A stretch of DNA of 64,000 bases from an uncultured Pseudomonadales bacterium (lineage in GTDB: Bacteria > Patescibacteriota > Microgenomatia > UBA1400 > MFAQ01). Numbering within the stretch: position 1 is the first letter of the stretch; each line of letters begins with the position of its first letter. The notes beneath the pieces are model-generated. The model was not told the DNA's origin. It searched no databases and saw only the letters and a program-made list of their open reading frames with translations. The stretch is from the NCBI GenBank assembly GCA_964429015.1, contig CAYSAM010000002.1, positions 25,158 through 89,157 on the forward strand. Reading direction: 5' to 3'. The position numbers were made by a program, and so were the translations under genes. Positions 429 through 57,318 of the stretch are shown one piece after another.

Positions 429-471
429 TAATTAATACTATCAAAACCCCCAGTCATCTACCATCTACCAT

Positions 472-759
472 CTACGATCTATTATCCCCTTCCTGCTTTA
501 GGCTTTTCACTTTCCACATAAACATTTTTGCTTTACTCCTAGCATTAGAATCTATCACAAAACTTTTTGCCTTTTCCAAAATTTCTCTAGGTGTGTTTTT
601 TGCCATGCGCATATATATAGGAGTATGTGCCGTATCATCCAAAGCCACAGCTAGGCGATAAGCATAATCCTGAAACTCTCTACTAATTCTTTTTTGCTTC
701 TCCTCATCTAGCTCATATCTATCCAACACGTTTATTAGTTTTGTAAATCCTGTATCCAT
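472..759 (-). CDS. Hypothetical small protein; 3' end overlaps a 7-nt tandem microrepeat
   Basis: 95-aa ORF with no recognisable motif. The C-terminal codons (DNRS*) are encoded by the CATCTACCATCTACGATCT repeat. Confidence 0.3.
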   Translation of the reverse strand: MDTGFTKLINVLDRYELDEEKQKRISREFQDYAYRLAVALDDTAHTPIYMRMAKNTPREILEKAKSFVIDSNARSKAKMFMWKVKSLKQEGDNRS

Positions 760-5647: not shown

Positions 5648-5722
5648 AGACGACAACATCTGTAATCTGTAATCTGTAACCTGTAATCTGTGATCTGTAA
5701 TCGATCTACGATCTACGATCTA
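5648..5722. repeat. Tandem 7-nt microrepeat array (CTGTAAT / CTACGAT units) between dedA and the ligase gene
   Basis: tctgtaatctgtaatctgtaacctgtaatctgtgatctgtaatcgatctacgatctacgatct read directly. The same unit family recurs at 453-481, 6655-6690, 22886-22925, 48593-48624, 51041-51072, 54464-54500 and 57281-57306. Confidence 0.8.
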
Positions 5723-7465
5723 AATCATTATATTCCCCGATATCTTCGCAATTCTCAACACTTCCTCCCAAGTCGTTGCTTGCTCAGATGCCTTGTCATC
5801 TCTAAATCGAACAAGCCTGGGAAACCGTAGAGCTAATCCTCCAGAGTGAGAAGGGCTTTTGGTAACCTCGTCTGCTGCAATCTCCACCACCACTTTAGGG
5901 CTCACCCACACATCGGGAGCCAAGCTTCCTTCTACCAAACAATTTTCTGGTTTTGTCACAACCTCCAAATTATCCAATCTTTTTCTAAGCTCCGTAAACT
6001 CTATGTCAGTTAAGCCAGTTCCAATCTTAGCAATCGACACCCACAAGTCACCCTTTTTAAGCCCGGCCAAAAATGCTCCCATACCAAATCCTGCTCGCTT
6101 CCCCCTACCGTAGTAATAACCCAAAACCACAAGGTCAAAAGTATCCGCCAATTTCCCACTTGTTCCTTCTGCCTCCTTAATTTTTACCCAGTTCCATCCT
6201 TGTCTACCAGGCAAATACTCACCACTCCACATCTTCATTACCGCCCCCTCATATCCCTCCTCCAAAAATCGAGTATGAATTTCTTCTAGTTCTACTGGGT
6301 CATTAGTTTTAACAAATTCATCCACTACCAAAACATCATTTTTCAAAATTATTTTCTTTAGTATCTCTCTCCTTTCAAAGTAGTTTTTCGAAAGCAAGCT
6401 TTCTCCGTTACAATACAAAACATCAAAAACAAAAAACCTCAAGGGAACACTAGCTGCGGCTTCCTCTACCCCATGCTTTCGCTTTCTTGTTATTGTCTCC
6501 TGAAAATTTAATATTCTTCCAGTCTTAGGATCATAACCAACAGCCTCGCAGTCCAAAATTAGTTCATCTGCATTTGTATACTCGGCCATTTTTTTAAGTT
6601 CCGGAAACATAGCACTACTCTCCTCCAAATTTCTAGTGAATGATTTCACCATACGTCTGTCATCTGTAATCTGTAAACTGTGATCTACATTTCTATCAAA
6701 ATGTATCTGCACTCTTGTCCCATCATACTTTGGTTCAATCGCTACTTCCCCCATATTTTTCACTATCTCTTCATATGTGTTAAGTCTTTGACATAGAGCT
6801 GGTACTATTGGAACGCCCACTTTTACTTTAATTTTTTTTAGTCCGTCCAAGCCCGCCTCTTTAAAAGCTCTCACTATCTCACCGGAGTCCGGATAAAGCT
6901 GATAAACTCTGTCTAGCTCTTTTCGCAAAGACTTATTTCCACTTTCTATCTGCGACAATGCATCAAAAACCGTCTTTTCCGAAAATCCCAAACGCAGCTT
7001 ACCCATCACCATTCGTACTACAAACTTTCCCTCCAAAAACGATAATTTGTTTATAAGCTTCGATAGTTTATTTACTTTCAACTCTTGGCTACCAGTACCC
7101 TCAAAGTAAGCTATTTCACTCAAGTCATCAAATACTTCATCCAAACTAATACTCTGTATTTTTTTGTCTTCTCCAAAATTTACTACCACTTCACCCAAAT
7201 CTCCAACTCGTTTATATTCTTTTTCCACCTCTTCAGTACTTTTGCCAAAGGCCAAGGCCACAGATCGAATCACCATCTTAGCTGCCATACTAAATTCTCT
7301 GTTATCAAATATCGGCCCCAACAAGCCCTGAGTCAAATAGATACCTTTGGCTGCCTCACCAACCTCAAATTTCCCAATAAGATCAGCAAGCACCACAGTA
7401 ATCTCTAGTCGAGATGAAATCTTTTCTAGTTTTTCTAAGTACTCTGCAAATTCTCTAAACAACAT
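5720..7465 (-). CDS. ATP-dependent DNA ligase (Lig1/archaeal-eukaryal type, DBD + adenylation + OB domains)
   Basis: Motif I KYDGTRVQIH (KxDGxR). 581 aa with an N-terminal DNA-binding domain, and EGAVMK (motif IV-like) further on. Confidence 0.85.
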   Translation of the reverse strand: MLFREFAEYLEKLEKISSRLEITVVLADLIGKFEVGEAAKGIYLTQGLLGPIFDNREFSMAAKMVIRSVALAFGKSTEEVEKEYKRVGDLGEVVVNFGEDKKIQSISLDEVFDDLSEIAYFEGTGSQELKVNKLSKLINKLSFLEGKFVVRMVMGKLRLGFSEKTVFDALSQIESGNKSLRKELDRVYQLYPDSGEIVRAFKEAGLDGLKKIKVKVGVPIVPALCQRLNTYEEIVKNMGEVAIEPKYDGTRVQIHFDRNVDHSLQITDDRRMVKSFTRNLEESSAMFPELKKMAEYTNADELILDCEAVGYDPKTGRILNFQETITRKRKHGVEEAAASVPLRFFVFDVLYCNGESLLSKNYFERREILKKIILKNDVLVVDEFVKTNDPVELEEIHTRFLEEGYEGAVMKMWSGEYLPGRQGWNWVKIKEAEGTSGKLADTFDLVVLGYYYGRGKRAGFGMGAFLAGLKKGDLWVSIAKIGTGLTDIEFTELRKRLDNLEVVTKPENCLVEGSLAPDVWVSPKVVVEIAADEVTKSPSHSGGLALRFPRLVRFRDDKASEQATTWEEVLRIAKISGNIMI

Positions 7466-7494: not shown

Positions 7495-9306
7495 TCATTT
7501 CACCACACTAACAGATTTTGTAGCAACATTACCCTTATTGTCAGTAACAGTTACCTTTATGGTGTGCGAACCCTTTGAAATATTCCAAGTTACCTTCGAG
7601 TATTCACAAACTGTTACCCTAGTACAAGTCTTAACTTTTGTGGAGTCAAAATAAATACTTATTGTTTTTATACCACTAGAATCACTTGCCGTTGATTTAA
7701 TCAAAAACTTGCTCACTCCACTTATATTCGTACCATTTACTGGTTTAGAAATAGTCACCACAGGTGCTTGAGTATCCGAAGTTGTAGGTGTTGGAGTCAC
7801 GGTTGTTGTTGGAATAGTTGTTGTTCCGCAAGGAAATGCCCCTACATAAGTACCATTCTCACCAGCGTTACAAGCGGGAGATAAAGGGTCTAGATGAAAA
7901 TTACCAAGCGCTGCATTCACAAACAAAGGTTTAGAAGTATCCTGAATCGTACTGTGCATATCTAATCCATACCTCTGCTGCCACTCTAAAAATGTTAAAT
8001 ATGTAAACGCAGAAGATCCTGTAGTAGCCAAGTTAGTCTTATCTTGTAGTATAAAACGCCCAACAGGAGAATAAAAATTATAATCCATCTTTGTACCAGT
8101 TGTTTTTATATTCATATTTATTGCGTTTTTATTCACAACAATATTATTTTTTACAGTCCAGTTATTGGACGGCCATGCATCTACTGGGTAGTACTCACCA
8201 ATTCCAATTCCAGAGTACATACCAGTAGAGTTTGTTGCGTAGTAAATTGTATTATTATTGACCGTTAATCCCGTTTGGCCTGTAGAAGTTATTCCAACAT
8301 TTAATGTGCCAAACATTACATTGTTACGAATTATCGTATGTGTATCTTTGTCTCGCCACTCAAGCTTACCCGCAGTAAAAAAGTCTGGTCCATTTCCAGT
8401 TCCACTTACGTGAATAGCAATATTTTGGTTTTTGAAAGTATTCCACTCAACCACAGAGTCAAAAGCGTTTTCTAATTCAATACCCATATCACAATTAGTA
8501 AATGAATTGTTTTTAATCAAAAAACGAGTAACTGGAGTACCAGCGCCATCAGCATCAACACATTTTCCAGAATCGTGAATATTATTTCCATCAATCACAA
8601 TATTGTCTGTTCTATCCATCGACCAAATACCACGGTTGGAATAACCGTAGATATTATTATTGCGGTATGTGTTGTTATAGCTAGTTGCATACCAATCCTG
8701 CACGCCATTTTCCCAATAATTCTTTCCGTTAAACTCACAATTTTCAACAAGGTTGTCATGACCATAATACTTAAGATTACCCTCCACGTAGCAATTTCGG
8801 ACAATAAAACCATTATTTCCAAGAGTTTTGTCGGTGGCACTCCAAGTTGTTCCCTGGCCAAAATACAAAGTTGCTAAATTACCAGTATTGGCAGTCGAAA
8901 TAAACCTAAATCCGTCAATAATATAATAGTGAACATTATTAGTTGTCACTATTGTTTTTTCTGAGCCCGAGTTTACAGTACATCCTTTTTGAGTTGCGCA
9001 CCTTAGTGTAACTGGGGCAGTAGCTACACCTGAATTTTTAATAGTTAAAGATTCGTTATATATACCACTGGCAACCTCACACATTTCACCTGCTTTCACC
9101 ATATTTAAACACTTTTGTATTGTCTTAAAAGGCAAGGCAGATGTGCCTGTGTTAGTATCGCTCCCTGTCGAGGAAACGTAATATGTGGTTGTAGATAGAC
9201 CAAGAACACTCCTAAATCTAGAATACCTAAAAACAAAAAATACCAAACATATGAAAAAAACAGTCAAAACTAAAAAATAACCATCAACTTTCTTTTTCTT
9301 AGCCAT
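7495..9306 (-). CDS. Secreted/anchored right-handed parallel beta-helix protein (pectate-lyase-like fold) with a C-terminal Ig-like domain
   Basis: N-terminal TM/signal (FLVLTVFFICLVFFVF). Repeated N-rich beta-helix rungs (NNIYGYSNRG, DGNNIHDSG, IRNNVMFG, NNNTIYYATN). Thr/Pro linker TTTVTPTPTTSDTQAP followed by a ~90-aa beta-sandwich-like tail. Confidence 0.6.
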   Translation of the reverse strand: MAKKKKVDGYFLVLTVFFICLVFFVFRYSRFRSVLGLSTTTYYVSSTGSDTNTGTSALPFKTIQKCLNMVKAGEMCEVASGIYNESLTIKNSGVATAPVTLRCATQKGCTVNSGSEKTIVTTNNVHYYIIDGFRFISTANTGNLATLYFGQGTTWSATDKTLGNNGFIVRNCYVEGNLKYYGHDNLVENCEFNGKNYWENGVQDWYATSYNNTYRNNNIYGYSNRGIWSMDRTDNIVIDGNNIHDSGKCVDADGAGTPVTRFLIKNNSFTNCDMGIELENAFDSVVEWNTFKNQNIAIHVSGTGNGPDFFTAGKLEWRDKDTHTIIRNNVMFGTLNVGITSTGQTGLTVNNNTIYYATNSTGMYSGIGIGEYYPVDAWPSNNWTVKNNIVVNKNAINMNIKTTGTKMDYNFYSPVGRFILQDKTNLATTGSSAFTYLTFLEWQQRYGLDMHSTIQDTSKPLFVNAALGNFHLDPLSPACNAGENGTYVGAFPCGTTTIPTTTVTPTPTTSDTQAPVVTISKPVNGTNISGVSKFLIKSTASDSSGIKTISIYFDSTKVKTCTRVTVCEYSKVTWNISKGSHTIKVTVTDNKGNVATKSVSVVK

Positions 9307-11371: not shown

Positions 11372-11412
11372 CGTCATTGCGAGGCGCGACTTTAGGTTGG
11401 CCGCGGCAATCC
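11372..11412. repeat. Dispersed imperfect-palindrome element (TCGTCATTGCGAG...CCGCGGCAATC), copy 1
   Basis: ccgtcattgcgaggcgcgactttaggttggccgcggcaatcc: ATTGCGAG and CGGCAAT arms are reverse complements around a GC-rich core. Copies at about 43168-43205, 48564-48592, 53313-53350 and 56430-56503. Confidence 0.75.
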
Positions 11413-14775: not shown

Positions 14776-15639
14776 TCAAATCTGACAATCTGGGCAGTAA
14801 AAAGTTCCCCTGCCCCCAAGTTTAACTTTTACAATCTTTCCACCACAATTTTTACAGGGCTGCCCCTCTCGCTTATAAGTTAAAAAGAAATTCTGATATG
14901 TTCCCCCCAAACCCTTGGTGTCTACATAATTTGCCGCGCTAGCACCCCCACACTCAATTCCCAAATTAATTACAAACCTCACAGCCTCATAAAGCTTTTT
15001 GGCTTCCTCTTTAGTCAATTCACACGCCTTTCTAGTAGGTAATATTTTTGCCATATTCAAAGCATCATTAGCATAGATATTTCCAATCCCTCCCATCAAC
15101 AGCTGATCAAGTAACACTATTTTTATTGGTCTTTTGTTTTTAATGAGTACCTTTTCAAAGTAATCCAAACTAAACTCCTCATCTACTACATCCGGCACTT
15201 TTTTAATCTGTAAACTGTTATCTGCCAGCTGTAAACTTACTACTCTCATCCACCCAAAAGCTCTCATATCATTAAAAAACAAAGCAGAATTGTCATCAAA
15301 AACAATCTCTATTCTTGTGTGCTTGCTAGGTAAACTATTAACCCAATCAGCACTAGGATGCCCACCCACAATTCTCTTTCCCTCACTTTGAGTTCTCTCT
15401 ATGTATATCAACTGCCCAGTCATCTTTAGGTGAACCTGAACAATAAAATCTGCATTTTCTAGCTCTATCTCCACCATCTTTGCTACTCTTCCAATTCTTT
15501 TAATTTTTCCACCCACAAGAATCTCTTTGTCACCAACGAAATTTTTATCCCTATAAACCTTCACCGTACAAATCACTCTCCCAACCAAAAAATTATTTAA
15601 CTGCCTTGCAATAGTTTCTACTTCTGGTAACTCTGGCAT
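14776..15639 (-). CDS. mutM: Formamidopyrimidine-DNA glycosylase (Fpg/MutM)
   Basis: N-terminal MPELPEVET (catalytic Pro2/Glu3). C-terminal zinc finger CKNCGGKIVKVKLGGRGTFYCPDCQ. Confidence 0.85.
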   Translation of the reverse strand: MPELPEVETIARQLNNFLVGRVICTVKVYRDKNFVGDKEILVGGKIKRIGRVAKMVEIELENADFIVQVHLKMTGQLIYIERTQSEGKRIVGGHPSADWVNSLPSKHTRIEIVFDDNSALFFNDMRAFGWMRVVSLQLADNSLQIKKVPDVVDEEFSLDYFEKVLIKNKRPIKIVLLDQLLMGGIGNIYANDALNMAKILPTRKACELTKEEAKKLYEAVRFVINLGIECGGASAANYVDTKGLGGTYQNFFLTYKREGQPCKNCGGKIVKVKLGGRGTFYCPDCQI

Positions 15640-22846: not shown

Positions 22847-22922
22847 CTATCGACCCAATAAGATATATTCTACCGCAACACACGTAATCTGACATCTGTG
22901 ATCTGTGATCTGTGATCCAATC

Positions 22923-40756: not shown

Positions 40757-40860
40757 ACATTAATATTACCATCGTCAACTCCTCATTTTGAATTCTTGGA
40801 TTCTTGCGAACGGAGTGAGTCCCGTGTATTTGCGCGGGAAGTTCTTGAGTTCTTGAAATA

Positions 40861-43113: not shown

Positions 43114-43286
43114 ATGTCAGTTTCCTCTCTCTCTCTCTTTGTCAACACTTTTCTTGAAACCAAGTATCGTCATTGCGAGGCGCGACTTTAGGTCGGCCGC
43201 GATGCTTCTCAGCAGAGCTAAATGTCGAAATTAGTTTTTGTTGAAGACAAAAATAACTTTCGACCAATCTATGCAAATAAACACTC

Positions 43287-44711: not shown

Positions 44712-45854
44712 ATGACAGATCTAAACAAGCTTAAAATTGCCACCATAGCAACTTCATCTCCATTTTGGATAGCAATAATTGTCCTATATCTAAACTCAAG
44801 AGGAATATCTCTGTCAGACGTTTTCAAACTAATAAGTTTTTACCAAATATCAGTGGTTGCTCTAGAGTATCCCACAGGAGTGATTGGAGACCACTTTTCC
44901 CACAAAACATCTGTAACTTTAGGATATCTGTTTTCATCTATCGGGATGCTACTGGCAACATTTCAACTTAGTATTCTTTTTTATTACTTAATTATGGTAA
45001 TTATCGCTCTAGGTGTATCACTTGTTTCGGGAAGCAACACCGCTTTGTTACACAAACTTTCAGAGGACTTTAAAAAAGACTCCGCCTCCCTAAAAAGTAC
45101 AACTATGGCATGGTCACTTATAGCTCTGTCCGTTGGAGGGTTAATCGGAAAATATAGCCTTGTAGCACCAATTTACCTTACCAGCGCTGCTTTCATGGTC
45201 GGTTTTATAACAATGACCTCAATCAACCAATCAGACCACAACAAAAAATCTGGAAATGTTTTTAGCAAAGCAAAAGAAGGAATAATTCACATAAAGAATA
45301 ACAACACCCTAATATCCATTTTAATTCTCAACGCACTAGTATCTGGCATTTTTCTTAGCACAAAGTGGTTCTACAACCCCTTCTTTGAAACTCTAGGAAT
45401 AAATATTTCTTGGTGGGGAATACTTATTAGTCTTGCATCACTTTTAAGTATTGCTGGTGTATTTTTATACAAAAAATTCACAAGCAATAAAATCATAGAG
45501 TATTACGTCTTTCTTATTATTCTATTTGGGCTTACATCCCTACTAAATAGTCGATTTTCAATCGTATCGCTTCCATCACTTATGCTTGCCCATCTTGTAG
45601 GTTCGGGGTACATACAAACATTTTTTGAAGTTAACATCAATAGTCACTTATCAGACTCAACTAGAGCAAGCGTCTTATCTTTCGGCAGTTTACTTATCAG
45701 ATTAACATCCTCAATTTACATTTACGCAACAGGTCTAATCATTGCCAATTACAACCTGTCACATCTATTTATTTTTACAGCAGCAATACTAACAATAATC
45801 GGTTTACCGTTTGTCTTCAAATTAAACTCCAAATTTGATTCTTTGAGTTCTTGA
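44712..45854 (+). CDS. MFS-type transporter
   Basis: 12 predicted TM helices in two 6-TM halves. The C-terminal codons are supplied by the GAGTTCTT tandem repeat. Confidence 0.65.
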   Translation: MTDLNKLKIATIATSSPFWIAIIVLYLNSRGISLSDVFKLISFYQISVVALEYPTGVIGDHFSHKTSVTLGYLFSSIGMLLATFQLSILFYYLIMVIIALGVSLVSGSNTALLHKLSEDFKKDSASLKSTTMAWSLIALSVGGLIGKYSLVAPIYLTSAAFMVGFITMTSINQSDHNKKSGNVFSKAKEGIIHIKNNNTLISILILNALVSGIFLSTKWFYNPFFETLGINISWWGILISLASLLSIAGVFLYKKFTSNKIIEYYVFLIILFGLTSLLNSRFSIVSLPSLMLAHLVGSGYIQTFFEVNINSHLSDSTRASVLSFGSLLIRLTSSIYIYATGLIIANYNLSHLFIFTAAILTIIGLPFVFKLNSKFDSLSS

Positions 45855-45883
45855 GTTCTTGAGTTCTTGAGTTCTTGAGTTCT
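45835..45883. repeat. Tandem 8-nt microrepeat (GAGTTCTT) x about 6, overlapping the MFS stop codon
   Basis: ttctttgagttcttgagttcttgagttcttgagttcttgagttctt read directly. Related arrays at 40793-40860, 47464-47497, 53234-53266 and 55025-55060. Confidence 0.8.
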
Positions 45884-45887
45884 TATA

Positions 45888-46906: not shown

Positions 46907-47623
46907 TTACTTAACCAAAAAATAAGCAATTCCAAATAAAAACAAAGCCATCACCATTCTCAGTTGTTTGTTGTATTTATGTTCCCATTCTTTCATCTCC
47001 ACCACTTTTTTGCCTCCTGCCATAACGAGCAATATAACAAAAATAGGCAAAATAAATATTAAGTTATAGTACAAAAAGTAAAACAGCACCTGCCACATAG
47101 GCAGACCAGATCTCGCCAAGTAAGAGGTTGTTCCTATATAGACAGGTAACATACAAGGAGTCGAAAACGCTGTAGTCAAAACACCTACTAACACCGCCAT
47201 CGAAGGACCTGCCTTTGCCAAAATTCCATTTATTTTTTCATACCCCTTACTGCTCATTCTTAAGTGAACAGGTAAGTGATCCCAAAACACATCTTTAAAC
47301 TGAATAAGTCCTGCTATTACCAAAATTCCCGCCATTAAATATTTAAATACACTAGCAATCCATAGTCTTTGCAAGTAAAAAGCAAGTCCATAAAAAAACA
47401 ATCCCAATACTAAATATGTAACAAACACACTCACCAAATACACCAAACCCTCCCTCAAAACCCTTGAATTCTTGATTCCTTGAGTTTTTGAGTTCTTTTT
47501 TGGATCGTTCTGCGATCCAAAAACTAAAATATACCCCAAAAAAGTAATCATCATCCCTATTCCACAGGGGTTCAACCCATTTACTAGTGCCGCCCCCGTC
47601 AAAGCCCAAATATTTATTGTCAT
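46907..47623 (-). CDS. ccdA: CcdA/DsbD-like transmembrane thiol-disulfide transporter, carrying an in-frame microrepeat insertion
   Basis: TM Cys residues in LNPCGIGMM and STPCMLPVY. The loop GSQNDPKKNSKTQGIKNSRVLREG is encoded by the GGATCGCAGAACGATCC palindrome plus the CAAGAACTCAAG-type repeat. Confidence 0.7.
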   Translation of the reverse strand: MTINIWALTGAALVNGLNPCGIGMMITFLGYILVFGSQNDPKKNSKTQGIKNSRVLREGLVYLVSVFVTYLVLGLFFYGLAFYLQRLWIASVFKYLMAGILVIAGLIQFKDVFWDHLPVHLRMSSKGYEKINGILAKAGPSMAVLVGVLTTAFSTPCMLPVYIGTTSYLARSGLPMWQVLFYFLYYNLIFILPIFVILLVMAGGKKVVEMKEWEHKYNKQLRMVMALFLFGIAYFLVK

Positions 47624-48261: not shown

Positions 48262-48338
48262 TTTTTTTCACGGTTCCAAAGGTAGGGGTTTGATTTATCA
48301 AACCCAAGCTACAATCATAACCATTAATTTTATAAATA

Positions 48339-48758
48339 TTAATTTTCATTATTCATCACTTTTAATAACGCTCTATAAGCCAAGGTTGCACACTTCATTC
48401 TACCTGCATTTATCTCTCCCCCCATCATTTCTACAATTCCCTCTTCTCCAATTTTTTCAACGTCCACAAAAGTCATTCCAATCACTTTCTCCGAAAGCAT
48501 ACTAGCTGCCGCTGTCGATATTGCACACCCCACCCCTCGCCACCTCACCTCCTTGATCACAACGTCGTCATTGCGAGCAGCGCGCGGCAATCCATCTCCT
48601 CTACCATCTACCATCGACGATCTTTTAAGCTTAATTTGCACTTGCACAACATCCCCACAACTAGAGTTAGACTCGTTTATAGTTAAGTCAGCGTCCTCCA
48701 TCTCCCCAAAATTTCTAGGGTTCTTGTAGTGATCAATTATTTCATCCTTGTAATCCAT
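48339..48758 (-). CDS. sufU: SufU/IscU-type Fe-S scaffold protein with a ~20-aa in-frame insertion derived from the dispersed palindromic element
   Basis: HYKNPRNFG, CGDVVQVQIKL and GVGCAISTAAASM are scaffold motifs. Between them, KRSSMVDGRGDGLPRAARNDDV is encoded by the cgtcgtcattgcgagcagcgcgcggcaatc + ccatctaccatc repeat at 48564-48624. Confidence 0.7.
   Translation of the reverse strand: MDYKDEIIDHYKNPRNFGEMEDADLTINESNSSCGDVVQVQIKLKRSSMVDGRGDGLPRAARNDDVVIKEVRWRGVGCAISTAAASMLSEKVIGMTFVDVEKIGEEGIVEMMGGEINAGRMKCATLAYRALLKVMNNEN
48564..48624. repeat. Palindromic element copy 3 fused to a 7-nt microrepeat, located inside the sufU reading frame
   Basis: cgtcgtcattgcgagcagcgcgcggcaatccatctcctctaccatctaccatcgacgatct read directly. 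Confidence 0.8.
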
Positions 48759-48802
48759 ATCTATGTAAACACCTTTGGTACTTCTTTTAATTTTTCTACC
48801 AA

Positions 48803-49999
48803 TTAATCAATATCTTCTTTGGTATTGTAAACATAAAATGTCGCTCTTACCATCGCCATTACCCCAAAACTAGTAACGAGTGGAGCTGCACAATGTTGAC
48901 CAGATCGCACACAAATTCCAAAACTATTTAGTACTTGCGCCACGTCATGAGAGTGAACTCCTTTAACATTAAAGGCAATCGCCCCACCTCTCTCCTCTGC
49001 ATTCCTCACACCATAAACCTCTACCAACCCTTCTTTTTCTATTACTTCAAATTTTTCCAGTGCATAACCCACTAACTCTTTTTCGTGTTCTCTCACATTG
49101 TCCATTCCTAATTTTTCAAGGTAATCCACTGCTGCCCCCAAACCTATTATCCCCGCAATATCTGGTGTTCCAGCTTCAAACTTATTTGGCAAGTCTGCCC
49201 AAGTTGTATTATCTAGTGTTACTTCACCAATCATGTCACCACCGTACAAAAATGGATCCATTTTATTAAGTAAGTCTTTCTTACCCCAAAGCACTCCAGT
49301 TCCTGTTGGACCCATCATTTTGTGTCCCGAAAAAGCCACAAAATCTACTGGCAGCTTAGTAACATCAAGTTTCATATGGGGCACCATTTGGGACGCATCC
49401 AAAACCACAACCACATCTGGGTTTTTTGCTCTTACTTTTTCTACCAACAACTTAATATCAGGTAGGGTTCCAATTGCATTACTCGCACCTGTCAAAGCAA
49501 ACAATTTCACTTTCCCGTCAGCAGTAAGTCTCTCCAAGCTATCCATATCAATTCTTCCGTCACTATCCACGTCAGCTACTCTAAAACTTCCAAACTTTTC
49601 TTTGCAAAGCACTTGCCAAGGCACAAAATTTGAGTGATGCTCTAGTCTGGTCACCAAAACAGCATCTCCCTCTTTTATATTTTTCTTTCCCCAAGAATAC
49701 ATTACCAGGTTAAGAGATTCACTAGCGTTTCTTGTAAAAATTACTTCTTCAGTACGTGCTCCTATAAATTTAGCCACCTTCTCCCGTGCTTCATCCACCA
49801 TTTTAGTGGACTCAACAGACAGGTCATACACTCCGCGGTGAATATTGGCATTATTGGTTCGGTAAAAGTCATCCATTGCTCGCAACACGCTTTCCGGTTT
49901 CTGGCTTGTAGCACCACTATCCAAAAACACCAAATCCTGTCCCCTAATTTTTCTCTTTAATATTGGAAAATCAGATCGAATCTTTTTTACATCAAACAT
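48803..49999 (-). CDS. sufS: Cysteine desulfurase SufS (class V aminotransferase)
   Basis: PLP-lysine region FSGHKMMGPTGTGVLWG. C-terminal active Cys in RSGQHCAAP. Confidence 0.9.
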   Translation of the reverse strand: MFDVKKIRSDFPILKRKIRGQDLVFLDSGATSQKPESVLRAMDDFYRTNNANIHRGVYDLSVESTKMVDEAREKVAKFIGARTEEVIFTRNASESLNLVMYSWGKKNIKEGDAVLVTRLEHHSNFVPWQVLCKEKFGSFRVADVDSDGRIDMDSLERLTADGKVKLFALTGASNAIGTLPDIKLLVEKVRAKNPDVVVVLDASQMVPHMKLDVTKLPVDFVAFSGHKMMGPTGTGVLWGKKDLLNKMDPFLYGGDMIGEVTLDNTTWADLPNKFEAGTPDIAGIIGLGAAVDYLEKLGMDNVREHEKELVGYALEKFEVIEKEGLVEVYGVRNAEERGGAIAFNVKGVHSHDVAQVLNSFGICVRSGQHCAAPLVTSFGVMAMVRATFYVYNTKEDID

Positions 50000-50013: not shown

Positions 50014-50553
50014 TTAGAAATTACTCCTTCCTACAAAAATTTCTTGATTTTTATCCATAATTCCCTCCTTAGAAATTTTATTACTTAGCAACAAAAACAT
50101 TCCCCCATCTTCTTGTTTCTTTATCTCATTTTTGTCCAAGTAGTAATATGGTTTACCTAAAACTTCAAAACCGGCCTTACCGTAAAGACCTCCTAGTCTT
50201 TCAATCTCAGTACACAACATTACCACGTCTACACCCAGGTTTTTCAAATAATCATTACACGCCATTAACACTCTCAACGCGTACCCTTTTCTTCTTTGGT
50301 TCAGCTCTGTCACAACACCTCCAATACCTCCCACCAAAACAGCTTTGTTAGAAATCAAAACCGTCTTAAACATAACCACTAAACCAGATAAAATTTTACC
50401 TTCATCTACTAGTGTAAACAACAATCTATGTAAATCAAAAAAATCTAAGTCTGAATCTCCATCGTGGCTATGTTCACCCCAGTTTTCATCAGCAAACTTT
50501 TCAAAAAGATCAATCTGTTCTTTGTCTGGGTTTGCAACCACTTTAATCTCCAT
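50014..50553 (-). CDS. GNAT-family N-acetyltransferase, embedded in the SUF operon
   Basis: Acetyl-CoA motif VGGIGGVVTELNQRRKGYALRVLMAC (the Q/RxxGxG/A region). Confidence 0.55.
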   Translation of the reverse strand: MEIKVVANPDKEQIDLFEKFADENWGEHSHDGDSDLDFFDLHRLLFTLVDEGKILSGLVVMFKTVLISNKAVLVGGIGGVVTELNQRRKGYALRVLMACNDYLKNLGVDVVMLCTEIERLGGLYGKAGFEVLGKPYYYLDKNEIKKQEDGGMFLLLSNKISKEGIMDKNQEIFVGRSNF

Positions 50554-51075: not shown

Positions 51076-52506
51076 CTATCCCACACTCCCTTCCATCTCC
51101 ATGTTTACTAATCTATTCATTTCAATAGCATACTCAAATGGCACCTCTTTCATTACCGGCTCCAAAAATCCATTCACAATCATTCCCTCAGCATCGTGCT
51201 CCGAAAGTCCCCGCGACATCAGGTAAAACAATTGCTCTTCAGACACCCTACTAACTACCGCTTCATGTTCTAGAACTGATCTATTTTCCATAATTTTATT
51301 AGTAGGGTAAGTGTCAGATCGCGAAAGCTCATCCAAAATAAGCGCATCACAAACTACTTTAGAACGCGAATTTATCGCTCCCTTAGCAATGTGTACCAGA
51401 CCTCTATAAGTAGACCTTCCGCCACCCTTACTAATCGACTTAGATAAAATCTGCGAAGTTGTTTCGGGTGCCAAGTGAATCATTTTGGCTCCCGTGTCTT
51501 GATGTTGCCCCGCTCCTGCCCAAGCAATAGAGAGAATTTCACCTTTAGCTTTTCTTCCTACCAAAAGACAGGCAGGATACTTCATGGTAAGTTTGCTTCC
51601 CAAGTTTCCATCTATCCAGCGCATACTTCCTTCTTCTTCTACACGAGCTCTTTTTGTCACCAAGTTATAAACATTTTTATACCAGTTCTGAACCGTGGTG
51701 TACTGCACACTAGCACCTTTCTTTACTATTATTTCTACCACCGCAGCATGAAGTGACCCCGAAGAATAAGCCGGAGCGCTACAACCTTCAATATAATGCA
51801 GTTTGCTTCCCTCATCCGCAATAATCAAAGTTCTTTCAAACTGACCAGCATTTTCACTATTAATTCTAAAATATGTTTGCAAAGGAAGACCTACGTCAAC
51901 ACCCTTAGGAACATAAATAAAAGATCCACCAGACCAAGCTGCACTATTAAGCGCCGCCAGTTTATTGTCCCCAATAGGTATTACACTTCCAAAGTATTTT
52001 TTTACTAACTCTGGATACTGTTTTAAACCCTCATCCATTCCCAAAAACACCACTCCTTTTTTGGCCAAGTTGGCTTTTAGAGATCCGTAAATTACTTCAG
52101 AATCATACTGGCTTTTTACTCCTGCGAGAGCTTCTCTCTCAGCCTGGGGAACTCCAATTTTTTCAAAAGTCGCTTTTACCTCTGCGGGTACATCATCCCA
52201 AGTTTTTCCAGCGTGATCTAGTGGCTTTAAGTAATAAAAAATATTCTGAAAATCAATCGCCGACATATCTCCGCCCCAAGTAGGCATCGGTTTTTCAAAA
52301 AAGATTTTCAAAGCTTTAAGACGAAGTTCCAACATCCATTCTGGTTCATTTTTCATTGCACTTATCTCTCTAATTCTGGCCTCATCCACACCCTTAGTAG
52401 AGCGATATGCATACTTAAAATCATCAGTGTGACCAAGAGAATAAGAGTCACCAATCCCTCCAATGTTATTTACTTCCTCTATTTTCTTTTTAGCAAATCT
52501 ACTCAT
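51076..52506 (-). CDS. sufB: Fe-S cluster assembly protein SufB
   Basis: 476 aa with the conserved SufB C-terminal half (…[15 protein letters not shown]…[12 protein letters not shown]…). Confidence 0.9.
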
Positions 52507-53275
52507 ATTTTTTATATCCAGTTTTACCCAAACTTTCTATTAACTCGGCTCCACCCTCATCAACCACCAAGCCCTTCTTTAAAACAACTACCTTATCCAC
52601 ATTCACCAAATTCAACATTTTTTGGTAATGAGTAATAAGTATCACAGTCATCCCTGTTTCTTTGGACTGCTTATTTATTTCTTCAGCTACAAGGTTCAAG
52701 GCATCAAGGTCCAAGCCACTGTCTGTTTCGTCTAGTATTGCAAGTTTTGGTCGCAAAACTCTCATCTGCAAAATCTCTATCTTCTTTTTCTCACCACCGC
52801 TAAAACCTTCGTTTATTCCACGGGTTAACAGATCATCACTTACTCTTAGTTCTTTTGCGATTTCTTCTACTTGGCGTTTTACATCAATGGCTTTTACCAC
52901 ACCACCCTTTGCTCTCAAGGAAGCTATCAAAACCTCTTTTACTGTTACTCCAGGTACAGAAACAGGATACTGAAAAGCCATAAAAATTCCCTCTTTAGCT
53001 CGTTCATCTGGGGTCATCTCGTTTATTTTCTTACCCATCCACAAAATCTCTCCTTCTGTTATTTCGTAAGCCGGGTTTCCCATCAAAGTGTTAGACAAAG
53101 AAGATTTGCCAGAACCATTTGGTCCCATCAAAGCCACTACTTTTCCAGTTTCTATTTCTATATTCACACCCCTAAGAACTTCTTTTCCTTCTACCCTTAC
53201 CTTCAAATTCTTAATCAAAAGTAATTCCTTATCTTGGGTTCTTGATTCCTTGATTCCTTGAGTTCTATTCGTCAT
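52499..53275 (-). CDS. sufC: Fe-S cluster assembly ATPase SufC
   Basis: Walker [14 protein letters not shown] signature [12 protein letters not shown]. Walker [13 protein letters not shown]-loop ILITHYQ. The start is placed at M16, because upstream codons are encoded by microrepeat and palindromic-element sequence; the alternative start is 53320. Confidence 0.85.
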
Positions 53276-53360
53276 TTTGAATTTTTGATTTTTTATATTT
53301 TGAATTTTTTCTGTCGTCATTGCGAGAAGTGTACTCGCGACGCGGCAATCTATACAAATC

Positions 53361-54420: not shown

Positions 54421-54497
54421 AGTTCCCCCATTAAACCACTACCTTCCAAAAATGTAAAACTATACTCCACGATCCACGATCTACAAACTACGATCTT

Positions 54498-55007
54498 TTA
54501 TCTCCCGTTCTCCCAAATTCTCATTCTTTTCTTAACCCAAACCCCAAAACCCATTACAGCTATTCCCGCCAACACTCCATAAAGAATATTTTCCCAAACA
54601 CCAGTTTCTGGTAAGGTTGTAACCGCCGATGCCGTCGCTGTTGGGGTTGGGGTTGGCGTGGCTGCAGATGCATTAAATCGTATTGTAAAGGTCAAAATCT
54701 GACTTCCCGAATTAACAGTTATCAAATTATCACCAGTATTCAAAGAACTAGGAGTAAAATTCCAAACCCCACTTGTTGTCGCTGCAATCACCGCACTAGA
54801 TGTTGCGTTTACTTTTACACTTACCATTGCAGCGGGAGTAGCTGTTCCTTCAAGCTGTGGCACTGATCCGGTATAACTGACCAAAGTGTAATCTGCCCCT
54901 ATTGTTGACAAAGTTCCAATCTTTGTCAAAGTAAGGTCATAAGCAAAAACGGGAAAAGCAAACAAAAATGCTCCCAGTATTGTCCATAAAATATTTTTTT
55001 TCCACAT
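54498..55007 (-). CDS. Sortase-anchored surface protein (LPETG cell-wall anchor)
   Basis: Signal peptide MWKKNILWTILGAFLFAFPVFA. C-terminus TTLPETG + hydrophobic helix + KKRMR. Thr/Pro-rich linker ATPTPTPTA. Confidence 0.65.
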   Translation of the reverse strand: MWKKNILWTILGAFLFAFPVFAYDLTLTKIGTLSTIGADYTLVSYTGSVPQLEGTATPAAMVSVKVNATSSAVIAATTSGVWNFTPSSLNTGDNLITVNSGSQILTFTIRFNASAATPTPTPTATASAVTTLPETGVWENILYGVLAGIAVMGFGVWVKKRMRIWENGR

Positions 55008-55068
55008 TTTGATTTTTTGATTTTTTCTTGATTTCTCGAGTTCTTGATTTTTCGAGTTCTATATATAT

Positions 55069-56429: not shown

Positions 56430-56503
56430 GTCGTCGTTGCGAGGAACAACCCGCCCGCAACACTGAAGAGTACTTCTGCGAGCAGGAGTGACGTGGCAAT
56501 CTA
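56430..56503. repeat. Palindromic element, long variant (copy 5)
   Basis: tcgtcgttgcgaggaacaacccgcccgcaacactgaagagtacttctgcgagcaggagtgacgtggcaatc, with the same TCGTCnTTGCGAG...GGCAATC termini. Confidence 0.7.
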
Positions 56504-56522: not shown

Positions 56523-57278
56523 ATGACCTGCCCACAATGTCACGATAGTCTAAATAAACTAGAAGTAAGCACCACCGATGGTCAAGTGAGAAAAATAGAC
56601 GAGTGCTTAAACTGTGGTGGACATTTTTTAGACAATTATCTTGTCAACTTTATTTCAGTCGAAACAGCCCGGAACATCGACTCTGTTCTTCCCAAAAAAC
56701 ACCTCCCCACAGTATCCGAACCAAAATGTTTCCATTGTGGTCAAGTTATGTTTGCAATCTCCGATGACTCCACTCCCAAAACCGTCACTGTCTACAACTG
56801 TCCCAACAACCACGGTGATTTTTTTCCCAAAGGTCAACTCCTCCTTTTCAAAAAAGCTCAAGACGCCAAAATAAACTATCACAAACTCTGGGGAATCCCT
56901 CTCAAAACTGCCTTCTCAGTAATCATTCCCCTTTTTATTATCTTCACCTCAGTTACGGTCCTACCCTCAGTTGTTAAAGAACTCAATCAGAGTACCGAAA
57001 ATCGCGTCAAAGCTTCTGAAATACTTACCGAACCTCTCATTACTCCCATCTCAGACAATCAAGTCCTCATTTCTTTCTCCACCAAAAACAAAGTACCCAC
57101 CAACCTTATTTTTACTTCAGGTATAAACAAAACTTTTACTGTTTCAGAGCAACCAAAAACAAGCCACTTAGTTAGTATCGAAAACCTTCCTCCTGCCACC
57201 ACTTTTAAATACACAATCGTTATAGATCCACAAGGTAAAAATCTCAAAACCTCAGAATACTCCTTCTCTACCCCCTAA
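56523..57278 (+). CDS. Zinc-ribbon membrane protein with a C-terminal FN3-like beta-sandwich domain, hypothetical
   Basis: Two CxxC...CxxC ribbons (CPQCH...CLNCG; CFHCG...CPNNHG), one TM (FSVIIPLFIIFTSVTVL) and a beta-rich tail. Confidence 0.4.
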   Translation: MTCPQCHDSLNKLEVSTTDGQVRKIDECLNCGGHFLDNYLVNFISVETARNIDSVLPKKHLPTVSEPKCFHCGQVMFAISDDSTPKTVTVYNCPNNHGDFFPKGQLLLFKKAQDAKINYHKLWGIPLKTAFSVIIPLFIIFTSVTVLPSVVKELNQSTENRVKASEILTEPLITPISDNQVLISFSTKNKVPTNLIFTSGINKTFTVSEQPKTSHLVSIENLPPATTFKYTIVIDPQGKNLKTSEYSFSTP

Positions 57279-57318
57279 ACTCAACAATCTACGATCTACG
57301 ATCTACTATAATACTCCC

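Follow-up and report, generated by a model that had tools for sequence, protein, structure and literature searches.

The sufU gene lies at positions 48339..48758, on the minus strand, of the window (i.e., the whole 64,000-nt stretch of DNA that was analysed) and encodes a 139-aa Fe-S scaffold or sulfur acceptor of the NifU_N/IscU type (ORF; Pfam NifU_N, 2.4e-24). It is located directly downstream of sufS (48803..49999, minus strand; Pfam Aminotran_5, 8e-132), which encodes a class V aminotransferase/cysteine desulfurase, the partner of SufU. Both genes are part of a suf cluster, Rrf2-SufC-SufB-SufD (short)-GNAT-SufS-SufU-DsbA-like thioredoxin-SfLAP, together with an FNR-like reductase and an FeS_assembly_P protein, and the make-up of this operon is identical in related genomes. 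The window is AT-rich (~38% GC), has a strongly negative GC skew and carries most of its genes on the minus strand. Homologues of its SufU protein place the organism in Candidatus Collierbacteria (Microgenomates, CPR).

The protein is of the SufU type in having the NifU_N fold, three Cys residues and a neighboring sufS gene within a suf operon. The three Cys residues (Cys34, Cys78 and Cys123) are invariant among homologues, and a Foldseek search with the structural model gave IscU (2qq4) and Bacillus subtilis SufU (6jzv and 5xt5) as the top matches. The fold and the three Cys ligands are common to the window protein and the known B. subtilis SufU and IscU proteins (5xt5, 6jzv, 2qq4, 4eb5), as is adjacency to sufS. 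A Lys replacing His before the third Cys is a feature that separates SufU from IscU; the window protein, which reads GRMKCATL, has Lys at this position. The second and third Cys residues are 43 residues apart in Escherichia coli IscU and 62 in B. subtilis SufU. In the window protein, Cys78 and Cys123 are separated by 45 residues and the SufU-type insertion of 18-21 residues between them is absent, i.e., the spacing is IscU-like, whereas that of B. subtilis SufU is longer.

A feature missing from all solved IscU/SufU structures is a 21-residue insert at the tip of the beta2-beta3 hairpin of the window protein. The insert spans codons K45-D65 (KRSSMVDGRGDGLPRAARNDD; 48564..48626, minus strand), and the translation at this site reads ...CGDVVQVQIKL KRSSMVDGRGDGLPRAARNDDV VIKEVRWRGVGCAIS..., so the SufU/IscU motifs flank it exactly where a preliminary description of this DNA had located them. 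The same description had placed the site in a loop between the conserved Cys-containing segments, and structural mapping agrees with this: IscU/SufU chains in the PDB align to residues 3-48 and 67-133 on the two sides of the site, with ~18-20 residues between them unmatched (4eb5_C, for example, aligns in two pieces, 2-47 and 47-112, that flank the insert). In an AF2 model of the protein (pLDDT 82, pTM 0.75), strands 36-46 and 66-76 form the beta2-beta3 hairpin; the insert protrudes from the tip of this hairpin, is modelled with low confidence (block pLDDT ~53) and is probably disordered. Because Cys34 is positioned two residues ahead of beta2 and Cys78 two residues past beta3 in this model, some ten residues of strand would separate the tip from each of the flanking Cys ligands.

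On the coding strand, the frame in use is the only one that is open over the insert. Since the insert is a multiple of three in length and contains no stops in this frame, it is predicted to be translated as a 21-residue extension of a surface loop, in a protein that remains functional. The distance from the CGD motif to the second Cys is 25-29 residues in species-representative genomes of distant Collierbacteria, other CPR bacteria, Chloroflexi and archaea, compared with 47 in the window protein and 31-53 in the subclade nearest to it. The insert has no counterpart in the outgroups, in the PDB alignments or in 31 of 121 homologues. Judged from these sequence comparisons, the segment K45-D65 is lineage-specific and not ancestral.

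At the nucleotide level, the insert includes two kinds of DNA. The first is a 26-nt hairpin element of what we call the A family (GTCATTGCGAGCAGCGCGCGGCAATC, with the exact two-terminus pattern GTCATTGCGAG...GGCAATC; 48567..48592, plus strand), whose minus-strand reading encodes GLPRAARND. The second is an imperfect heptamer array detected by TRF (48592..48623, plus strand), which consists of 4.9 units of CCATCTA (TAGATGG on the coding strand) and encodes RSSMVDGRGDG. In a perfect TAGATGG array, TAG would fall in frame twice; on direct reading, the sufU copy has TCG or a truncation at these places.

Copies of both are found elsewhere in the window. The two-terminus pattern identified A-family copies at 11373..11411 (plus strand) and at 53316..53350 (plus strand), the latter between Rrf2 and sufC and beside an octamer array (53241-53309). 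A long variant of 69 nt (GTCGTTGCGAG...GGCAATC) was found by sequence match at 56433..56501 (plus strand), and a copy without the 3' terminus (43169..43201, plus strand; repeat family D15) is 97% identical over 34 nt to the copy at 11372. All A-family copies in the window other than that in sufU are intergenic. The closest relative of the sufU array is an intergenic array of 3.9 CATCTAC units at 455..481, plus strand (TRF; repeat family D5), within 446-485; the identity between 48592-48623 and 446-485 is 78% over 40 nt, and the sufU array forms one family with the arrays at 446-485, 54462-54501 and 57270-57309. Many spacers between co-directional genes of the window are filled with heptamer and octamer arrays. 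Because both the hairpin element and the heptamer array match intergenic copies in the window, the SufU insert is composed of two intergenic-type modules, of which the heptamer array is a dispersed module separate from the A hairpin element.

The pattern GTCATTGCGAG-N4-34-GGCAATC has three exact matches in the window (11373, 48567 and 53316) and none in 100 dinucleotide shuffles, and TCGTCATTGCGAG, with up to two mismatches, has six matches in the 64-kb window versus 0.59 expected. The claim that an intergenic-type element and a microrepeat lie in frame inside sufU was thus upheld by the two-terminus matches and by the homology of the arrays; on exact alignment, the resemblance to intergenic copies survives shuffling controls, and related genomes carry identical elements both intergenically and in sufU. 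The A element of the window sufU has a GC content of 0.65, compared with 0.38 for the window, and differs at four positions from the commonest member of the family, GTCATTGCGAGCGAAGCGTGGCAATC.

To describe the family more broadly, we scanned IMG/VR and JGI metagenome contigs (at least 120 stretches each), and the resulting counts are lower bounds. A scan of GC islands for coding inserts was too permissive, since Gly/Ala-rich coding regions also score, and it was replaced by a 'GTC + hairpin + C' scan. All retrieved DNA contained at least 203 A-type copies with at least 143 distinct sequences, in contigs of 28-74% GC. Copies range from 24 to 70 nt in length (mode 26-37), and conservation is confined to their termini. 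The typical anatomy is GTC-ATTGC-GAG, a variable stem-loop and CGYG-GCAAT-C(C); in brief, this is GTCAT, a variable compensatory hairpin and ATCC. The inner stems vary with complementarity preserved (GGC/GCC, GCC/GGC, CCTTGC/GCAAGG, CCGTCT/AGACGG), and the loops are often GNA triloops, e.g., GCGAAGC. When the core was shuffled, 133 of 143 distinct copies (at least 143 exist) lost stability relative to the native fold. The description of the element as palindromic therefore holds for the family; the window copy is itself only weakly palindromic, with a degenerate inner stem, an MFE of -5.7 kcal/mol and a fold no better than that of its shuffles. Folding of single copies in the window gave unimpressive z-scores, and the hairpin becomes clear only from compensatory variation across the family.

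A sister type, B (GTCATTCCGGGCTTGACCCGGAATCC), occurs as an exact 26-mer six to eight times per single IMG/VR contig (~57% GC), and further relatives with A/B-type ends include GTCATCCTCGCGAATGCGGGGATCC and GTCATTCCCGCGCAGGCGGGAATCC. In ~0.7 Mb of Collierbacteria-type loci, we found 48 copies with the strict pattern. The head GTCAT, which the A and B scans also showed, is present in 48/48, the positions -1 and +1 are pyrimidines in 48/48, and 45/48 lie on the strand opposite to genes, an orientation that was also seen in an unrelated high-GC contig. No target-site duplication (TSD) beyond chance was detected at these copies (0-3/48). Tandem arrays of copies were observed in the loci L122, L097 and L206/L217. 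Rfam yielded no family for the element, either with the whole window at the gathering threshold or with the element array and the sufU site at a permissive E-value. Literature searches found no paper with the element word GTCATTGCGAG (primer matches only) or with its characteristic peptides, and nothing relevant on in-frame palindromic elements in CPR bacteria, on REP elements in Patescibacteria or on GC-rich palindromic in-frame inserts in general. We know of no name for the GTCAT-hairpin-ATCC family. The A family is apparently an unnamed, REP-like family.

The site of the insert was further analyzed in 121 Collierbacteria-type SufU proteins, i.e., the window protein and 120 homologues. Variation in length among them is limited to the beta2-beta3 loop: the turn is tight, as in the ancestral state, in 31, and the other 90 have inserts, all at one and the same position. 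The inserts fall into at least eight classes, whose counts overlap because 10 sequences are composite. Octamer (AACTCAAR) arrays occur in 32/121 proteins, A elements in 15/121, B elements in 10/121, a GC-rich class E (SPTS.KASLGAGD) in 8/121, TAGATGG heptamers in 7/121, ATCTGTG heptamers in 5/121, F-type hairpins in 3/121 and the perfect palindrome TCCCGCCATGGCGGGA in 2/121, with 18/121 inserts unclassified. DNA of the orthologous loci shows that the insert peptides are the repeats themselves. The ATCTGTG class corresponds to an array that is also present between genes of the window; the 32-mer GTCATTGCGAGGAACGRAGTGACGTGGCAATC is intergenic in three loci (L003, L005 and L014) and lies within sufU in another (L012); and the commonest A-family 26-mer occurs in sufU of both P0004 and L005, in differing contexts, and many times in unrelated contigs. 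For class E, no dispersed copy was found in Collierbacteria-type loci or IMG/VR.

Several loops record more than one event. In sufU of P0037, an 18-nt hairpin is nested inside the loop of an F element with the frame kept, and in sufU of P0063 and in an intergenic element (L020, 10489), B-type arms enclose a hairpin core that is longer. In sufU of P0005, the heptamer part is common with the window, but another palindrome, set between identical flanks, takes the place of the A element. In a loop-masked tree (~115 residues, weakly resolved), insert classes interleave with insert-free SufU proteins, and the large number of unrelated insert sequences by itself requires many independent insertion events. 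In Saccharibacteria, the SufU of one genome carries an independent insert in the homologous loop, which is derived from heptamers. The reading frame is kept in 38/38 species-level loci, and it is free of stops in 120/120 homologues. About 11 of the 48 strict-pattern copies (~0.7 Mb) are in the SufU loop and one is in sufS, the remainder being intergenic; the enrichment at the loop is large but approximate, since the loci were chosen for their sufU content. A second recurrent site is the spacer just downstream of sufU (sufU-dsbA), which is occupied in many genomes. Because related species carry at least eight repeat types there, the tip of the SufU beta2-beta3 hairpin is a natural insertion hotspot. 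Tolerance and nesting may be an incomplete account of the excess of this loop over other surface loops.

In-frame copies are not restricted to SufU. The A family was found in frame in SufS (L085) and, on other contigs, in a SecA linker, an NTPase_1 domain, a type III restriction-modification methylase and a primase (four hosts confirmed by Pfam). In the window, SfLAP has a micro-repeat-derived insertion of 10 aa that is missing from six orthologues, and the ATP-dependent DNA ligase and the inter-domain linker of Fpg contain micro-repeat-derived peptides.

The host gene sufU is under purifying selection. Among four insert carriers (the window, P0001, P0004 and P0005), dN/dS outside the insert is 0.05-0.09 at dS of up to ~1.1, which indicates that sufU has long been functional while carrying the insert. 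At the nucleotide level, conservation of the inserts exceeds that of synonymous sites. The heptamer part differs at 2/33 positions at dS ~1.06 and at 0/35 at dS ~0.56; four sufU genes in which third positions elsewhere are 43-59% identical have the same B core (26/26); and L013 and L020 agree at 30/30 positions of the octamer part. A simple neutral model of junk in a loop does not predict this conservation, which suggests that insertion was recent and independent, that dispersed copies homogenise the inserts or that their nucleotide sequence is constrained.

The analysis established that the segment was inserted, that it is homologous to dispersed copies and specific to a lineage, that the host gene is under purifying selection and that insertion has recurred at the site. 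The reading that we favor, at a probability of roughly 0.8, is an in-frame, translated insertion of REP-like hairpin DNA and a micro-repeat array at a permissive hairpin tip of SufU, which would have become a hotspot as elements join, enter or replace residents. By this mechanism, a heptamer array of the type found in spacers and a GC-rich GTCAT-hairpin-ATCC element would have been inserted into the codons of the beta2-beta3 tip. The hairpin elements would act like selfish DNA of the REP type, in keeping with their conserved ends, compensatory stems, lack of TSD, strand bias and mutual clustering and nesting. A first insertion would seed the loop; later elements would land next to or inside the resident, or would replace it by recombination through shared ends; and selection would retain only in-frame, stop-free outcomes, turning the loop into a hotspot. 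The mobiliser is possibly a single-strand transposase of the HUH/Y1 type. Close strains showed no presence/absence polymorphism that would record an insertion event.

The alternative that survives best, which we regard as possible though unlikely, does without transposition: the modules would have been copied from spacers by illegitimate recombination, template switching or gene conversion via microhomology, and the micro-repeats would have grown by slippage. The window insert indeed resembles a whole spacer module composed of AAAAGATCGT, heptamers and an A element (compare 54462-54501 and 446-485), yet the copy just downstream of sufU is never identical to the copy in the loop. The element ends, GGAT... 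and ...ATGAC, resemble codons of Asp-Gly turns, and empty sites commonly read GAT GGA or GAC GGG, but the microhomology amounts to only 4-5 nt. The lack of TSD, the exchange of the P0005 core between identical flanks and the 3' junction common to A and B (ND at -10/-9 from the conserved Trp, in six loci) are also consistent with copying. However, the range of genomes that hold the elements (28-74% GC) and their tandem arrays imply that the elements spread actively.

We consider it improbable that the modules are kept in sufU for a role as nucleic acid (a protein-binding site, a signal for RNA processing or stability, or a translational pause) with the peptide as a by-product. Insert conservation above the synonymous expectation (26/26 for the B core, the heptamers, and 30/30 for the octamers) would fit such a role, but the identity is explained equally well if the insertions were independent and recent, or if dispersed copies served as donors in gene conversion. 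The elements also keep a fixed orientation to transcription and, in many genomes, are found again in the sufU-dsbA spacer; yet direct reading shows no terminator-like T-run after the hairpins, and the hairpin of the window A copy is degenerate. In addition, no single motif can be required at the loop, because at least eight unrelated sequences occupy it and 31/121 orthologues have none.

Tips of surface hairpins often vary in length, and 18 inserts fit no repeat class; nevertheless, an ancestral or ordinary hypervariable loop that resembles repeats by chance or through low-complexity bias is extremely improbable. The exact 13-mer and 7-mer termini at the proper spacing gave three matches versus none in shuffles, identical 26- and 32-mers are common to sufU and to intergenic copies of other genomes, and the outgroups have a tight turn; this explanation was rejected. 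Magnusiomyces 'byp' elements are GC-rich hairpin inserts in yeast mitochondrial genes that are bypassed by ribosomes, a single known system, and repeats can be misassembled in metagenomes, but an insert that is bypassed or spliced out, or a repeat misjoined into sufU during assembly or binning, is scarcely credible and was rejected, as the same 139-aa protein with its insert is present in independent JGI, NCBI and ENA assemblies (P0001-P0003), in diverged form in P0004-P0006, and the frame is kept without stops in 38 species-level loci and 120 homologues, which bypass would not need. An intein or intron was rejected on the basis of insert size (63 nt) and frame conservation. A target of a diversity-generating retroelement was likewise rejected, since the variation consists of the insertion of unrelated modules and not of adenine-directed substitution in a repeat of fixed length.

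The preliminary description had likened the insert to Rickettsia palindromic elements (RPEs), and the comparison is apt as an analogy of behavior, not as family membership. RPEs are ~150 bp long (range given, 100-150 bp), form ten families with a conserved encoded peptide and are confined to Rickettsia (Ogata et al. 2000, summarised in PMC10969869). According to that summary, they are dispersed palindromes that occur both intergenically and in frame in unrelated housekeeping genes, where they add a fold-compatible peptide (PMC10969869). The A family shows the same combination, with in-frame copies in sufU, sufS, SecA, NTPase_1, methylase and primase genes and most copies intergenic. As RPEs are described there, the SufU-type elements are set apart from them by a length of 24-70 nt, by termini that alone are conserved and by occurrence across phyla, in contigs of 28-74% GC; A-family elements have neither the 100-150 bp length nor the conserved peptide. 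A single-site hotspot holding many families is not mentioned for RPEs in the available part of the review (PMC10969869).

REP/BIME elements, which are mobilised by RAYT (an HUH Y1 protein), are imperfect GC-rich palindromes of 20-40 nt that have a short conserved 5' head and are mostly extragenic and species-specific. The A family is like them in consisting of short GC-rich palindromes with a conserved head, stem-loop structure, a mostly extragenic location, strand bias and adjacent or tandem clusters without TSD. It differs in its head, GTCAT rather than GTAG (no GT[AG]G head was found), in its cross-phylum distribution and in its repeated occurrence in frame within genes. GTAG REP elements are mentioned in PMC10969869. 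The A family does not have the characteristics of MITEs, which derive from an IS and combine terminal inverted repeats with a TSD: its inverted termini are 5-8 bp (ATTGC/GCAAT), there is no TSD, and its size is below the usual 50-500 bp.

Two more distant systems offer partial parallels. Heptanucleotide STRR repeats, reportedly described by Mazel and colleagues in 1990 in heterocystous cyanobacteria, are said to form tandem arrays dispersed between genes. The arrays analyzed here are similar in being dispersed intergenic tandem heptamers and differ in phylum, in their units (ATCTGTR and CCATCTA) and in the presence of translated arrays inside genes. The GC clusters of yeast mitochondrial VAR1/rps3 are mobile, short GC-rich palindromes that are usually non-coding but also occur in frame, altering protein size between strains (PMC4464245). 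GC-rich palindromes of an AT-rich genome that lie in frame in a gene are found in both cases, an analogy that implies no homology; the yeast clusters are organellar, eukaryotic and unrelated in sequence, and VAR1 is of low complexity, whereas SufU is a compact, conserved Fe-S scaffold.

The best-known cases of in-frame selfish DNA in proteins come from Rickettsia and yeast mitochondria, and the data presented here extend this behavior to CPR bacteria, with a much shorter hairpin family. They also carry a warning for annotation, as CPR proteins such as SufU, SufS, SecA, Fpg, DNA ligase and SfLAP can hold repeat-derived segments, which inflate apparent sequence novelty and seed spurious 'hypothetical proteins'. 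Peptides of the A-family type are common in proteins annotated in this way. The more interesting and unexplained parts of the finding are the single-site, multi-family hotspot, i.e., one codon-level site of an essential gene that takes at least eight repeat types with nesting and replacement, and the conservation of the inserts at the nucleotide level. The SufU loop inserts provide a natural map of the tolerance of the SufU/IscU fold at its distal hairpin, and the loop is a tractable locus for catching the elements in action and finding their mobiliser. A bolder and rather doubtful reading is that the GTCAT-hairpin-ATCC elements and the hepta- and octamer arrays are an undescribed, cross-phylum form of single-strand-mobilised hairpin DNA whose preferred targets are existing hairpins, which it would enter or land next to, with the SufU tip as a self-perpetuating landing pad. 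If this is the case, ongoing turnover or a function of the nucleic acid would preserve the nucleotide sequence of the loop elements, and an essential Fe-S scaffold gene would also serve mobile hairpins as a nursery and provide a natural experiment on what a loop tolerates.

Peptides derived from repeats are found in several window genes besides sufU, which encodes the Fe-S scaffold protein. A 10-amino acid insertion, NSKTQGIKNS (window 47462-47499), is present in an SfLAP/CcdA-like membrane protein (ORF 46907..47623, minus strand); it is derived from an octamer array of the CTTGAGTT type and is absent in six orthologues. Heptamer arrays are read in frame in two further minus-strand genes. The peptide VDHSLQITDDR (6656-6686) occurs in the adenylation domain of an ATP-dependent DNA ligase (ORF 5720..7465), and SLQLADNSLQIK (15204-15237) is located exactly in the linker between the N-terminal and H2TH domains of Fpg (ORF 14776..15639).

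The A family, i.e., short GC-rich hairpin elements, also enters other proteins. In locus L085, the element GTCATTGCGAGACCCGCCCTGGCGGGTCGTGGCAATC (9213-9249) is in frame in SufS and is read as IATTRQGGSRND, within a loop whose length is variable in L084 too. Additional in-frame copies are carried by unrelated metagenome or viral contigs (L325 245-943, L319 4747-5385, L175 3152-4291 and L180 5200-6603), where the hosts are a SecA C-terminal linker, an NTPase_1 protein, a type III restriction-modification methylase and a primase. Reading frame and orientation vary among these copies; within the SecA linker, there appear to be three distinct peptides that stem from such elements.

The beta2-beta3 loop of SufU is occupied in other genomes as well. 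One Saccharibacteria sufU (L049 2597-2719) has an insert of approximately 15 amino acids with three GAACAGA heptamers in this loop, which is an independent insertion. Two different sufU alleles were detected within a single metagenomic bin, CAZUFH01 (L005 and L038): one contains an octamer array and an A element, and the other contains class G (an A variant whose core is a hairpin) and matches L010 exactly. The pair suggests a strain mixture or bin contamination.

Many short spacers that separate co-directional window genes are filled with tandem arrays of heptamers (ATCTGTR, ATCTACG and CCATCTA) and of the octamer TTGAGTTC. Such arrays, which often start immediately 3' of the stop codon of the upstream gene, were located at 455-481, 5658-5722, 22894-22917, 40788-40856, 45835-45884, 53241-53309, 54466-54481, 55007-55060 and 57287-57306; they are reminiscent of the STRR heptamers of cyanobacteria. 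The longest sufC ORF (52499-53320) starts within an A element and octamer array. Since the ABC_tran domain begins no earlier than residue 49, the real start is probably downstream, and the 24-residue repeat-derived N-terminus is therefore likely not translated.

The window sufS ORF ends with TAA at 48803-48805, where five orthologues have Tyr. Reading in frame past this codon (48759-48805) yields 14 further codons corresponding to the conserved C-terminus, LVEKLKEVPKVFT, followed by a stop. The 14-residue truncation of SufS is either a nonsense mutation of recent origin or an error in the sequence determination.

The spacer 3' of sufU is a second recurrent element site. In many Collierbacteria genomes, a GTCAT...ATC hairpin element lies in this spacer, before the DsbA-like gene (L005 2794, L010 4100, L011 2319, L012 10440 and 10540, L014 10365, L084 10407, L085 10403); in its place, the window has an AT-rich hairpin, GGGTTTGATTTATCAAACCC (about 48286-48305). 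At the sufD-sufS junction, the window carries a GNAT acetyltransferase gene (50014-50553). Other Collierbacteria have other genes there, a GDSL lipase and 23S_rRNA_IVP in L221 and an uncharacterized 188-amino acid protein in both L220 and L082; the gene content at this point of the operon is thus variable as well.
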